A DNA stretch of 64,000 nt from Monodelphis domestica (taxonomy: Eukaryota). Positions 6,001-11,461 of this stretch are shown here, piece by piece. Location of the stretch: NCBI RefSeq assembly GCF_027887165.1, contig NC_077227.1, positions 173,290,324-173,354,323 on the forward strand, in the 5' to 3' direction. The position numbers were made by a program. Numbering within the stretch: the first letter of the stretch is position 1; every line of letters begins with the position of its first letter.

Positions 6001-9000
6001 CAAGAATATTCATAGCTGCGCTCTTTGTGGTGGCAAAAAATTGGAAAATGAGGGGAAGCCCACTAATTGGGGAATGGCTGAACAAATTGTGGTATAGGTT
6101 GGTGATGGAATACTATTGTGCTAAAAGGAATAATAAAGTGGAGGAATTCCATGGAGACTGGAACGACCTCCAGGAAGTGATGCAGAGCGAGAGGAGCAGA
6201 ACCAGGAGAACATTGTACACAGGCTGATACACTGTGGCACAATCGAACGTAATGGACTTCTCCATTAGTAGCAATGCAATGATCCAGTACAATTCTGAGG
6301 GATCTATGAGAAAGAACACTATTCACATTCAGAAGAAAAACTGGGAGTAGAAACAAAAGAAAAACAACTACTTGATTACATGGCTTAAGGGGGATATGAT
6401 TGGGGATGTAGACTCCAAACTAGTACAAACATCAACAACATGGAAATAGGTTTTGATCAAGGACACTTGTAAAACCCAGTGGAATTGTGGGTCAGCTATG
6501 GGAGGGGATAGCAGAAGGGGAGGGAAAGAATATGATTCTAGTAACCAAGGAAACATGTTCAATATTGACTAATTAAATAAAATTAAAAAAAATAACTGGT
6601 AACTTGGAGAGGACCATTTTAGTTGAATGATAGGGTCAGTAGGCCTCCAAGGAATGGATACCTCAGACTACATTTTAATATAGCACAAAAAGAGCAAATG
6701 GGTCCTTCAGAAGCCTATTCCCAAAACCCACCTTTGATTCTCCCTTCTCTCCCACCTGAATCTAACCTTCATTATCTTTGGCCTTGCCATTCCTCTCAGC
6801 ATCTTCTGTCACAAGTTCTTGTTTCACTCCTTCTACCACGAATTCACCTCGGGCTTTCTTGGCTTTAGAAGGGCATTCCATAGATAAAACACTAGATATG
6901 TTTCTCGTACTGCCTCCATTAGCTTCAGTCAACTCCACAGCAGCTAAAGGCAAAAAATAAATAAAAAGAAAGATAAGTACAACATAAAGAAAAATGGAAT
7001 TCTTTGTTATATGTAATATCTCTCTGGGAGTGGAGCAGGGGGAGGGATAAATGGGGAAAATTTTAAGTGATATGAAAACAAATGATATCAATAAACATGT
7101 ACTTAAAAGAAAAGGAAAGGTGAAGTAAATTAGTATTTTGCACAAAGGGTGGACTGGGTAGTAGAAAAAATGTTAAAATTTCAATACATATGTTACCATC
7201 AATTCCTATGCCTCTTCCTTAATCTACAATACTTGAAAAGCTATTGGTCCCAGGTCATTTGTCAATCAGTGAAAGATCATGAGCTGAGAATTTGGTCCTT
7301 AATTGCTTTGATTTCCTCTATAAACTGAGACTTGTTCTTCACAATGTTCCCCATGCTCCTGTGAATGAATCATTTCCTATCCTGAAACAATGAGTAAGTT
7401 TTCTCCTTAATATCTCTATATCTCATTCCCCATTCACTTCAGGTTATATTTCCCAGTATATCTCAGTACTTCTTTGTACTACACAGTCCTTCTATAGCTC
7501 TTTTCTTCTTCCTTTACTATATCCACAAGAATATCAAATTGGACACTTCTATCTACATACATTAATCCCACGCTGAATCTCAGGCATTTCCCACTGAACT
7601 AGTAACTATATATACCTGAAGGCTGGCGCTCTATTCTGCGTTGGTATCCACTTTTGCAATTGGTTTGTACCATGCTGCCTACATCCAGAGTATAACGTGT
7701 TCGGCCAAACATCACATCTATCTTCAGCTCATTGCTTTCTGCTAGAGTTCTCTCCAGAGCCAGGCAAGTCTTAGCATCATATGGGATCCAGCCATCTTCC
7801 TCATCACCCTGCCACTGCCAGATAAAATCTACAGAAAAACAATATCAAAGGAAAGATTTTGTAGGAACTAGGGCAACACTCTGAATTACCACCTCTATTC
7901 TAAAGCATGCATTAAAAAGGTCTCAAAAGATAAGTTATCTTTCCCCAAGGTTTTACCAGGTCTTTCAAATTTGAGTCAAAAAACATTTATTACTAGGTTG
8001 CTCAGTGGATAGAGAGCCAGGCTGGAAACTTCAAATCTGGCTTCAGACATTCTAGCTGTGTGACCCTGGGCAAATCACTTAATCCCAATTGTTTATTCCT
8101 TATTGCTCTTCTGCCCTGGAATTGATATTTAGTATTGATTCTAAGACAGAAGGGTTGAAAAAAAAGTATTGGGTGCTAAACCTTCTATTTATAATCTATG
8201 AAGAAATCCAAACAAAACTTCTTTTTAATGACAGTGCCAGAGAACAAGGATAATATATTACAAATTGTGTTATGATTAGAGAGGCATTCTAAATCATTAT
8301 GTTGGCTGAATGTCATTTGTACAGATAAGAATATCTACTGATAAAATAATGGGCTAATGGTATTTGTCCCCAAAATGAACACTTCTTGACCAAAGGCTAC
8401 ACACTCACAGGAGCCCTGGTCCTTGACGGCAACAGCAATTCTCCTCTCAGTCCTTGTCTTTGTAGTCCTCTGGACCATTTTCTTGAAGTCCACCTGGAGC
8501 TTCATGTTTCCACTATCTGATGAGATATTTACCAAAGCATTTCCGTTCCTGAAAGATAAACCCCAGTTTGAGGCAATCATACCTATCTAACTCCCTAAAA
8601 TCTAGACTTGTTGACAAATCACTTAACCCCAACTGCCTAGCCCTTACTACTCTCCAGCCTTTCGAACCAACACTATGGGTTGATTCTAAGACAAAAAGTA
8701 AAGGGATTAGAGGGGAAAAAAGACTGTCAATAATAGCTGCTTCCACTTTCCTTCCTCTCACTATCTTCTTAATCCCTTACAACCTGGCTTCCAATCTCTT
8801 TGTTCCACCAAAACTGCTCTCTCCAAGGGTACCAATAATCTTTTAACTGACAATTCCAATGGCCTTTTCTCAATCTGCATTTTTCTCAAACCTTATGGAG
8901 ACTTTAACACTATTGATAACCTCCTGAATATTCTCTTCTCTCTAGGTTTTCAAAATAATACTCCTGTGGTTTTCCCTTAATCTAGCAGATCCTTCTCCAT

Positions 9001-11461
9001 ATCCTTTGCTGGATTCTCATCTAAGTTATACCCTCTAACTGCTGGATCCTCACTCAAGATATATACTCTAAGAGTCCCCAAGTGTTCAATTCTGGGCCCT
9101 TGTCCTTTTTCCTTCTATAGTATCACTCCCTCTAAATTTGGTGAACTTATTAGCTCCCATGGATTTAATTATCATCTTTATGCCAATGATTCTCAGATCA
9201 ACCTATCCTGCCCCAATCTCTCTGCTGACCTTTAATCTTGCAACTCCAACTGCCTTTTGGACATGAGGAACTTTATGTTCAGTAGATAGTATGTCCAAAA
9301 TTAAATTCTTTCCCCTAAACCCTTCTTCGCCTCCTTTTGCTGTCAAGGGCAATAAATATCATTCTTCCAGGTCCTCTGGTTCACAAACTAGGTGTCATCC
9401 TTGACTCTTCACCATCTGTTATTCCACATATCCAATCTATTGATAATTATCAATTTCACCTTTGTAACATCTCTCAAACATGTCCCTTATTCTACTCTGA
9501 TACTGTTACAACTCTAAAGCCTCTCCTCACACTAATCCACCCTCTATTCAGCTCCTAAAGAGATATTCCTAAAGTGTAGGTTCAACCACATAACACCTCT
9601 GTTCTAGGTTCAAACATAAAATCTTCCATGTTCAAAGCCTCCATAACCTAACCCATCATCTACCTTTTCAGTCTGATATCTATACAATCCCTTTCCTTCT
9701 CTCTACATACTCTTCAGTCAAGTGCCACTGGCTTCCCTGCTGTTCCAGAAACAAGATAACCCCATCTCTTGACTTCAGGCATTTTCTCTGGCTGTCTCCA
9801 TGTTTGGAGCATTCTCATTCCTCATCTCCACCTACTGGTTTCCCTGGATTCCTTTAAATTCCTTCTAAAATCCTGCCTTCTACAAGAAACTTTTCCCAAT
9901 CCCTTTAAATTCTAGTGCCTTCTCTTTTAAAATTATTTCCAACTTATCTTGTACATGCAAAGCTTATTTACACATATTTGTTTGTTATCTCCTCCATTAA
10001 ACAGTGAGCTTGGAAGACAGTCTTTTGCTTCTTTTTGTATTCCTGGTGCTTAGGCACAGTGCCTGGCAAACCTTTAAGCACTGGATGAATGTTTATTGAC
10101 CCAATTCAAATTTCTTAATCCCCAAAGAAGCAAAAATGAAAGACAAACTAAGCCCTATGCTAGAAATGATCCAAAAAGTTTGACAGCAGGGGGATATGTA
10201 AGAATTGGCAGCTGGGAACAGATGGGAGAAAGACCAAACATAGTCTAACATACAAAAAGTAAAATATTTGCCTCACAAATATTATTATTAATTCACAGAA
10301 TTAGTCACTGCAGAACATTTCTGAAATGGAGAAAAGGATGGAGCAAATAGAAAAATGATCCATTAATTCTCCTGTGAATTTTTCCCCATAGTGAATATTC
10401 CCTAATATTCCATAATATTCCCTAGATGTAGCAGATGTAGATGTTTCCTTTGGTGAGGGGAGTCTCTGAGGACTTTCTAAGTATGACAGTTTCTTTAGTG
10501 AAAAAGAAGCTGAGTTGATATTGGGGGTGGTAGGAAAAATGTTAATCTTATATAAAGCAATGCAATAAATTGTTGCAAAGTTTTAAAAAAAAGACCACTA
10601 ATATTGCTGTGACTTAGACTAGTGATATTTTTTTAAAATATCATCACAGAAAGCTGGATGAGTCTGATTCAATATATAGGTAAAAATAAAAGTCCCTGAA
10701 AGAACTCTTATGTGATAGGAAACTGTCCCTTCAGATCAAACCTGTCACCCAAGGAAGAGAAAATGACAGGAAATTTGGAATAGTACGAACCTGAAAGCCT
10801 CTGTGATCTCCATATCCTGAGTAGAAGGATACCAATGCCAGATACCCTCTGAGTCCTCCCATTGCCAATGAAATTCAACTGTAGATGAAGCTGCCTCACT
10901 CTTTTCAGACTCTGACCCTGGGGACTGAAGTTTTATCCTTGTACCTAGAGAAGAAACAGAAAAATGATGCCCGGAACTGGAGGTTGGGGTCCAGTTGGAC
11001 CAAGATAAGTAAGAAAAGGAAGAATCCAGACTACTATGCCACAGATTTGAGTGCTGGTCCTGGAATCTGAAAAACCTTGGTTCAAATCCCTGCTGGGACA
11101 ATTACTACACTCTGCCTGTCCCCATCCTCAACATTTGCATAACTTTTCAGTCTCAGTTTCTTCTTCTGTAAGGGGGCTTAACTGGTTACTAAGGTCACTC
11201 CCAGTTTCTAGCTCTAGATGTGTAAAATTAAAGGGTTGAATTCAATGGCTTTTAAAATCCTTTCCCTGTTTGGTCAAGTTAAGCCAATTAGCATTTAGTA
11301 AAAGCTACTATGTATGTCCCAGGCACTGTGCACAACACACGAGTTAGTTCTTCCCTCAAGGGAAGTTTAATGGGGGAGACAATACAGCAAACAACTCCTC
11401 CAAGGATTTAACTCGATAGCCTTAAAGATCTTTTCCAGCTAGTGCTGTGATTATTTTCAAT

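Follow-up and report, generated by a model that had tools for sequence, protein, structure and literature searches.

Does the PARP2 gene of a marsupial encode domains that human PARP2 lacks? The question is raised by a 64,000-nucleotide stretch of the Monodelphis domestica genome (NCBI RefSeq assembly GCF_027887165.1, contig NC_077227.1, forward-strand positions 173,290,324 to 173,354,323; hereafter the window). Three minus-strand exons encoding two WWE domains lie there between the exon carrying the PARP2 start codon and the exon encoding the PARP2 basic linker. An earlier note, made from the sequence alone, had placed them "inside PARP2 intron 1" and considered a WWE-WWE-PARP2 architecture that its author did not know. 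Our analysis indicates, with a probability of about 0.9, that these belong to an ancestral-type PARP2 as its coding exons 2-4 and form its tandem WWE module. The description as an intronic cassette is a view from the placental gene structure: in human PARP2, a WWE domain is absent and the N-terminal region short and disordered (PMC4245714). In the ancestral animal PARP2, the order is basic N-terminus, WWE1, WWE2, basic linker, WGR, regulatory domain and catalytic domain.

To define the exons, the minus strand was read from 12200 to 6600 and the five exons of the earlier note were extracted by script. They are as follows (all numbering is that of the window).

12000-12042, minus strand: PARP2 exon 1, coding part, 43 nt; MASRRSGRSTSHAR plus 1 base
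10791-10944, minus strand: PARP2 exon 2, 154 nt; linker and N-terminal half of WWE domain 1 (FHWQWEDSEGIWHWYPSTQDMEITEAFR)
8409-8548, minus strand: PARP2 exon 3, 140 nt; C-terminal half of WWE domain 1 (…LQVDFKKMVQRTTKTRTERRIAVAV…)
7616-7828, minus strand: PARP2 exon 4, 213 nt; complete WWE domain 2 (FIWQWQGDEEDGWIPYD…RYTLDVGSMVQTN…QRRIERQPS)
6767-6943, minus strand: PARP2 exon 5, 177 nt; basic linker with KAKKARG; positional counterpart of placental PARP2 exon 2

The start codon of exon 1 occupies 12042-12040, and its donor reads GAG/GTCCGG (a slash marks an exon border), with the GT at 11999-11998. The encoded peptide aligns with the platypus PARP2 N-terminus, MAARRRTGRNGGPRR. Exon 2 is preceded by a pyrimidine tract and an AG acceptor (...TTCTCTAG/) and followed by the donor /GTTCGT. 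The acceptors of exons 3, 4 and 5 are ...ATCTTTCAG/, ...TTTCTGTAG/ and ...GCCTTTAG/, and their donors are /GTGAGT, /GTATAT and /GTTAGA, respectively. Together, exons 2-4 amount to 507 nt, or 169 codons, whose only open frame is the continuation of that of exon 1. The cassette enters and leaves in phase 1, fitting the flanking PARP2 exons, and neither a start or stop codon nor a promoter signal of its own is present in it. When exons 1-5 are spliced, the resulting 727 nt encode 242 amino acids with no stop. Script extraction and Pfam thus bore out the three exons, their borders and phases, the two WWE domains and the in-frame link to PARP2 as first described, and no stop appeared when the phases were recomputed by software. 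The chance of about 3e-4 that had been given for 169 stop-free codons corresponds to (61/64)^169. The intron between exons 1 and 2 carries a compound microsatellite on the minus strand at about 11470-11540, in which GATA/TAGA repeats are followed by an ACAT run, and a TG-rich run lies near 11700.

The domain assignment is clear at the sequence level. Pfam WWE (PF02825) matched the window protein in two stretches at 112.8 bits against a cut-off of 21.1 (E 9.7e-33), and WWE_5 (PF23467) scored 39.1 against a cut-off of 24.9. A score so far above the cut-off makes the cassette much more than a chance open frame. Exon 2 takes part in the WWE/WWE_5 match, and the best WWE stretch covers residues 115-180, encoded by exon 4 (WWE2). 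Both domains contain the W.W...G.W..Y and MVQ...R motifs. Among the aligned sequences, W116, W118, W126, E138, Y158 and Q167 of WWE2 are invariant, exon 4 having 12 invariant columns in total; WWE1 has W.W...G.W..Y, and its M90 and Q92 are invariant across 9 species. A profile built from PARP2 N-termini was compared with solved structures and matched the DTX1 tandem WWE (1.4e-21) and TRIP12 (1.4e-12), followed by further matches to HUWE1, Drosophila Deltex, PARP11 (9.1e-07), RNF146 and ZAP (7.6e-04).

That the gene is PARP2 was confirmed by its head-to-head neighbour and by the downstream linker and WGR exons, which continue the frame. The nuclear RNase P RNA gene RPPH1 lies 243 nt from the ATG, head-to-head with PARP2 exon 1, and serves as a synteny anchor. 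Exons 6-10 were located by tblastn, with the human and platypus PARP2 proteins as queries, and their borders and frame were read from the sequence.

12285-12620, plus strand: RPPH1 (nuclear RNase P RNA), full length; Rfam RF00009, 241.2 bits, E 1.1e-72
3911-3981, minus strand: PARP2 exon 6; VSVKTLLLKGKTPVDPECTIKVGK, also written VSVKTLLLKGKTPVDPEC…
3129-3179, minus strand: PARP2 exon 7; AHVYCEGDDVYDVMLNQ
1802-1892, minus strand: PARP2 exon 8, WGR domain; TNLQFNNNKYYIIQLLEDDGQRTFSVWTRWGR; TNLQFNNNKYY…WTRWGR
580-655, minus strand: PARP2 exon 9, WGR domain; VGKVGQHNLVTCSGDLNKAKEIFQKK
1-69, minus strand: PARP2 exon 10, cut by the window edge; FFDKTKNSWEDRGSFKKVPGKY…

These five exons represent the linker and WGR region in a continuous frame, and are 62-85% identical to human and 59-89% identical to platypus PARP2.

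We then compared the locus with that of the platypus. The platypus PARP2 locus (L001) has RPPH1 head-to-head upstream, as in the window, and the two proteins are 45% identical over the aligned N-terminus. Platypus L001 5844-5983, encoding the second half of WWE1, measures 140 nt, the same as window 8409-8548, and ends at the same donor, GGCTCCT/GTGAG. Likewise, L001 6326-6538, encoding WWE2, measures 213 nt, the same as window 7616-7828. The donor of window exon 2, GCTTTCAG/GT, matches the platypus donor at L001 3182/3183. The homologous borders are therefore GCTTTCAG/GT, GGCTCCT/GTGAG, ag/ATT.. and /GTAT.., and three intron positions (after AFR, GS and RxPS) are identical in the two species, phases included. 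One difference concerns the 1055-nt window intron at 10945-11999, between exon 1 and the first WWE exon, a region where the platypus model has a continuous exon (L001 3001-3182). This implies an intron gain in the lineage of the window, a loss in platypus, or a difference in modelling. Beyond RPPH1, the platypus locus also contains two SNORD126 copies on the minus strand (L001 734-810 and 1144-1218); across the 64-kb window, no SNORD126 was found at the gathering score.

The correspondence extends well beyond platypus. Over its whole length, the 242-aa product aligns with the N-terminal part of PARP2 from platypus, turtle, frog, coelacanth, ray, whale shark and oyster. It is collinear with nine PARP2 N-termini, and the invariant columns fall on the WWE motif residues. 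To survey these relatives, we used as query a protein of 192 aa (P0001; UniParc UPI0002738F50), which, at 76% identity, was the one close relative of the window protein in the protein collection. Run with phmmer against 1.84 billion representative proteins, it gave 236 matches, and of ten longer, high-ranking matches scanned with Pfam, six combined WWE with PARP2-type domains (WGR, and mostly also PARP_reg and the catalytic domain). The platypus (P0003) and oyster (P0027) proteins contain two WWE stretches, WGR, PARP_reg and the catalytic domain. The frog protein (P0008) has two WWE stretches, WGR and PARP_reg, its sequence ending before the catalytic domain, and the ray protein (P0024) has two WWE stretches with a partial PARP_reg match. 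The turtle entry (P0005, Chelydra PARP2) is a fragment with two WWE stretches and WGR. A single WWE stretch is present in the snake isoform (P0015, Thamnophis elegans PARP2 X4), which starts inside WWE1. Their source names agree with this classification: platypus "poly [ADP-ribose] polymerase 2" (XP_028933514.1), Crassostrea gigas PARP2 (XP_011443308), Narcine bancroftii PARP2 X3 for the ray and a Leptobrachium protein for the frog; whale shark "PARP2-like" entries were found as well. The region from WGR to the catalytic domain in these relatives is 53-73% identical to human PARP2. In oyster, the whole form (741-744 aa) lies on many Logan contigs of 2.4-3.5 kb. Since these are transcript-sized and intron-less, they look like transcripts, and the architecture appears to be carried on a single mRNA there.

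The WWE-WWE-PARP2 architecture is therefore not new but already published and annotated in other species. One or more WWE domains at the N-terminus of PARP2 have been described in many non-mammalian animals (Perina et al. 2014, PMC4245714, section 3.1.1), and public PARP2 entries from platypus, oyster, snake, ray, frog and turtle contain them. The same section names "bird" as an example of a WWE-bearing PARP2 and is internally inconsistent at that point. The papers that we searched refer to the PARP2 WWE as "non-mammalian" only and do not discuss a loss; nothing specific was found in the literature on the PARP2 WWE in marsupials or monotremes, or on its loss in placentals.

Several related gene models differ in another way. 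The lungfish (P0002), coelacanth (P0004, "PARP2 isoform X4"), Engystomops (P0009) and Ascaphus (P0010) entries are gene models with a transposase-type DNA-binding domain, in which the 5' exons of PARP2 (WWE, linker and the initial exons leading to WGR) continue into a Myb/SANT-like, MADF or zf-BED domain that replaces WGR and the catalytic domain. They could be host-transposase fusion isoforms or prediction artefacts from intronic transposons. We looked for Myb/SANT, MADF and zf-BED exons in the window and found no match.

The earlier note had also raised the possibility of a separate nested gene or of a recent segmental duplicate of a WWE gene; a recent exon capture is a further variant, with DTX, PARP12, TIPARP or RNF146 among the conceivable sources. 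The closest solved structure by sequence, the DTX1 tandem WWE, would fit such an origin. However, the DTX1 match is weak and at the level of the domain (single-sequence E 2e-7; stretches of 15.6 and 17.7 bits), against the identity of 45% to platypus PARP2. The same two WWE domains occupy the same place in the PARP2 of oyster, shark, ray, coelacanth, frog, turtle and platypus, and the cassette, which begins and ends in phase 1, lacks start, stop and promoter signals of its own. The identical platypus exon lengths (two), the shared borders at three intron positions and the RPPH1 neighbour rule out both a nested gene and a recent capture, and we give practically no credence to this origin.

Deltex proteins resemble the window protein in having two tandem WWE domains with the pocket glutamine, aromatic residue and arginine (DTX1, PDB 8R5N/8R6A/8R6B; Drosophila Deltex, 2A90). 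In Deltex, however, RING and DTC domains follow, whereas WGR and PARP domains follow here; the two share a paralogous domain family and are not orthologues. Membership of the window gene in the Deltex family was rejected, as the downstream exons are of the WGR-type PARP2 kind rather than RING-H2/DTC and the protein is far closer to platypus PARP2. The clade 3 WWE-PARPs (PARP7/TIPARP, PARP11, PARP12, PARP13/ZAP and PARP14) likewise have WWE N-terminal to a PARP catalytic domain. Neither WGR nor the regulatory helical domain is present in these enzymes, which are inactive or act as mono-ADP-ribosyltransferases (PMC2964712, PMC4245714). Their WWE domains are more distant from those of the window than are the domains of DTX1 or TRIP12. 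Membership of this group (PARP7/11/12/13/14) was also rejected, since WGR is encoded downstream of the WWE exons here and is present, with PARP_reg, in the orthologues; the window gene belongs to clade 1, the PARP2 group.

Selective constraint was assessed by comparison with platypus. Synonymous sites are saturated at this distance (pS about 0.77 and dS undefined), so only pN and the comparison of pN/pS between exons were used. The value of pN was 0.25 in WWE1 and WWE2 and 0.43 in the neighbouring linker exon. Compared with P0001, WWE2 is 80% identical (56/70) and the linker exon 69% (41/59). Judged from these values, the WWE exons are at least as constrained as the linker exon, which all compared PARP2 proteins keep. 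This bears on whether the exons could be relics, dropped from the PARP2 mRNA in the way we infer for placentals and now slowly decaying. In favour of such a fate, human PARP2 has no WWE domain (PMC4245714). Yet the 169 codons are open, the splice sites are intact on all six borders of the cassette, the Pfam score is far above its cut-off, and pN (0.25 against a saturated pS) lies below that of the neighbouring coding exon. In addition, the Gln, Trp, Tyr and Arg expected to contact the ligand are retained, and in P0001 the module is joined to the linker exon with the introns removed. We therefore consider decaying relics very improbable.

P0001 is also the only sequence that bears on splicing. 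Two introns are removed from it, so that the last part of WWE1, all of WWE2 and the linker exon are joined. Beyond the position of the 6767 donor, its C-terminal tail continues into sequence homologous to the window intron below 6767 and thus represents a retained intron. Its content and tail together indicate that P0001 derives from the orthologous locus in a related species. It supports the equivalents of the 8409>7828 and 7616>6943 junctions; it bears on neither 12000>10944 nor 10791>8548. A search for contigs encoding P0001 gave none, and no transcript of the window species turned up. Presumably the module would be included constantly in the marsupial mRNA.

A further explanation is that the exons form an alternatively spliced cassette, with WWE-bearing and WWE-less PARP2 both made in meaningful amounts as PAR-reading and non-reading isoforms (PAR, poly(ADP-ribose)). 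The gene structure would permit it: three kinds of removal leave the frame unchanged, that of the whole cassette (507 nt), of the two WWE1 exons (294 nt) or of the WWE2 exon (213 nt), and two donors, GTTCGT and GTATAT, are sub-optimal. Several RefSeq PARP2 isoforms (X3, X4) exist in snake, ray and coelacanth, the snake X4 showing one WWE, and placental PARP2 functions without the module (PMC4245714). On the other side, the sole spliced relative, P0001, includes the exons, and the WWE exons are under stronger constraint than the linker exon. Such splicing is compatible with the assignment of the exons to ancestral-type PARP2 and would only add regulation to it. We regard isoforms of this kind as possible but rather unlikely.

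Some points weigh against reading the three exons as constant coding exons of a PAR-reading PARP2. The two donors just named do not fit a strong consensus, and with three in-frame skips available, skipping is possible. The 12000>10944 junction has no support elsewhere, given that P0001 starts inside WWE1 and the platypus model is intron-less there. P0001 itself may be a cDNA or a gene model; it was the only protein returned by a word-indexed protein search, and that collection holds no protein of the window species, with or without WWE. The catalytic exons lie beyond the window, the gene leaving its left end in the WGR region at about residue 360 of the platypus protein. The loss in placentals is read from the published human architecture. 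The WWE fold, too, is assigned from sequence, the structure model being poor: a single-sequence AlphaFold2 model of WWE2 reached a pLDDT of 70.6, with strands and one helix and an unstructured C-terminal third, and a Foldseek search of it against the PDB gave nothing at E < 0.8, with HUWE1, TRIP12 and RNF146 WWE as weak matches. We accordingly drew no conclusion from structure. Finally, WWE1 lacks an equivalent of Tyr144 of RNF146, and Arg110 is kept in neither domain, so that PAR affinity may be weak or confined to WWE2.

RNF146 (Iduna, PDB 3V3L) is the reference reader of iso-ADP-ribose: Tyr107 stacks against the ligand, Gln153 pairs with it, and Arg110, Arg163 and Lys175 hold it (PMC10877565). 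Every solved WWE complex has the adenine-pairing glutamine, and for an 11-mer PAR the tandem WWE of DTX1 has a Kd of 340 nM (PMC11269756). We aligned both window domains with RNF146, whose numbering was checked against the published residue types (PMC10877565). Tyr107 is replaced by Trp in both domains, Gln153 and Arg163 are retained in both, and the Tyr144 equivalent is kept in WWE2 alone. WWE2 thus keeps four ADP-ribose-contact residue types and WWE1 three. Unlike RNF146, the window protein has Gln at the Lys175 position of WWE1 and no residue aligned with it in WWE2, Ile at the Trp114 position of WWE2 and no Arg110 equivalent. RNF146 also has a single WWE domain and ubiquitylation as its output, whereas the window protein has two and PAR synthesis.

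From these residues, WWE2, and possibly the tandem, would be expected to bind ADP-ribose units of PAR. In the mechanism that we propose, one or both WWE domains would bind ADP-ribose or iso-ADP-ribose units of the polymer. This would recruit PARP2 to, or retain it at, sites with PAR already made by PARP1, where it would extend or branch the polymer. Such binding would presumably affect PARP2 activity. In human PARP2, the disordered N-terminal region is reported to bind PAR, and this binding to promote branched-chain synthesis (PMC6089979); the proposed PAR reading would parallel that role.

The comparison with other PARP2 proteins can be put in two parts. Non-placental forms (platypus, oyster, Thamnophis, Narcine, Leptobrachium and Chelydra) share with the window protein the order basic N-terminus, WWE1, WWE2, basic linker and WGR. 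Platypus also shares the 140- and 213-nt exons, their phases and the RPPH1 neighbour, and the window differs from it by the extra intron at 10945-11999. Human and mouse PARP2 resemble the window protein in that the first exon starts with a similar MA.RR… and the basic linker then follows. The human gene, too, presumably lies head-to-head with RPPH1. Human PARP2 differs from the window protein in having no WWE domain, its own N-terminal region being the one reported to bind PAR and drive branched synthesis (PMC6089979); this disordered region may replace the WWE function.

We infer that the WWE exons were lost in the placental lineage. In human PARP2, exon 1 is joined directly to the linker exon, and as the cassette consists of 169 whole codons with phase 1 at both ends, this junction stays in frame. 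Removal of the cassette keeps the frame, and a route to the placental loss by exon skipping is therefore plausible. A fuller scenario combines three elements: loss in stem placentals by in-frame skipping, a disordered N-terminus that took over PAR binding, and a module that is still alternatively spliced in the genome of the window, giving isoforms with and without PAR reading. Taken together, we find this combination unlikely.

Other elements of the window lie outside the gene. At 36336-40476 on the plus strand, inverted relative to the real gene, is a degenerate partial PARP2 copy corresponding to about residues 162-457 of human PARP2. It is spread over intron-like gaps, its frame is broken and holds stop codons, and DNA identity is 80% in the piece that corresponds to the exon at 1-127. 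It looks like an old unprocessed partial pseudogene from an inverted duplication. A decayed gammaretrovirus-like endogenous retrovirus occupies 17558-24653 on the minus strand; its G+C content of 0.46-0.49 is above that of the surroundings, and separate open reading frames (ORFs) match Gag_MA, Gag_p30, protease, reverse transcriptase and the TLV_coat envelope in proviral order. L1-type LINE fragments extend over 56316-61817 on the plus strand, with Transposase_22 (ORF1 RBD) and Tnp_22_dsRBD across two ORFs and a reverse-transcriptase ORF.

The biological point is modest and does not overturn current understanding. What is new, on a small scale, is that the module is kept not in platypus alone but also in another mammalian lineage, represented by this marsupial genome, so the wording "non-mammalian" is too narrow. 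For annotation, expecting the human PARP2 structure puts these exons "inside intron 1" and loses 169 residues of protein. PARP2 would ancestrally have carried a folded PAR-binding module, and its absence in human fits the PAR binding reported for the disordered N-terminus there. Marsupial and platypus PARP2 may thus offer a natural comparison for the control of secondary or branched PAR synthesis by PAR reading.

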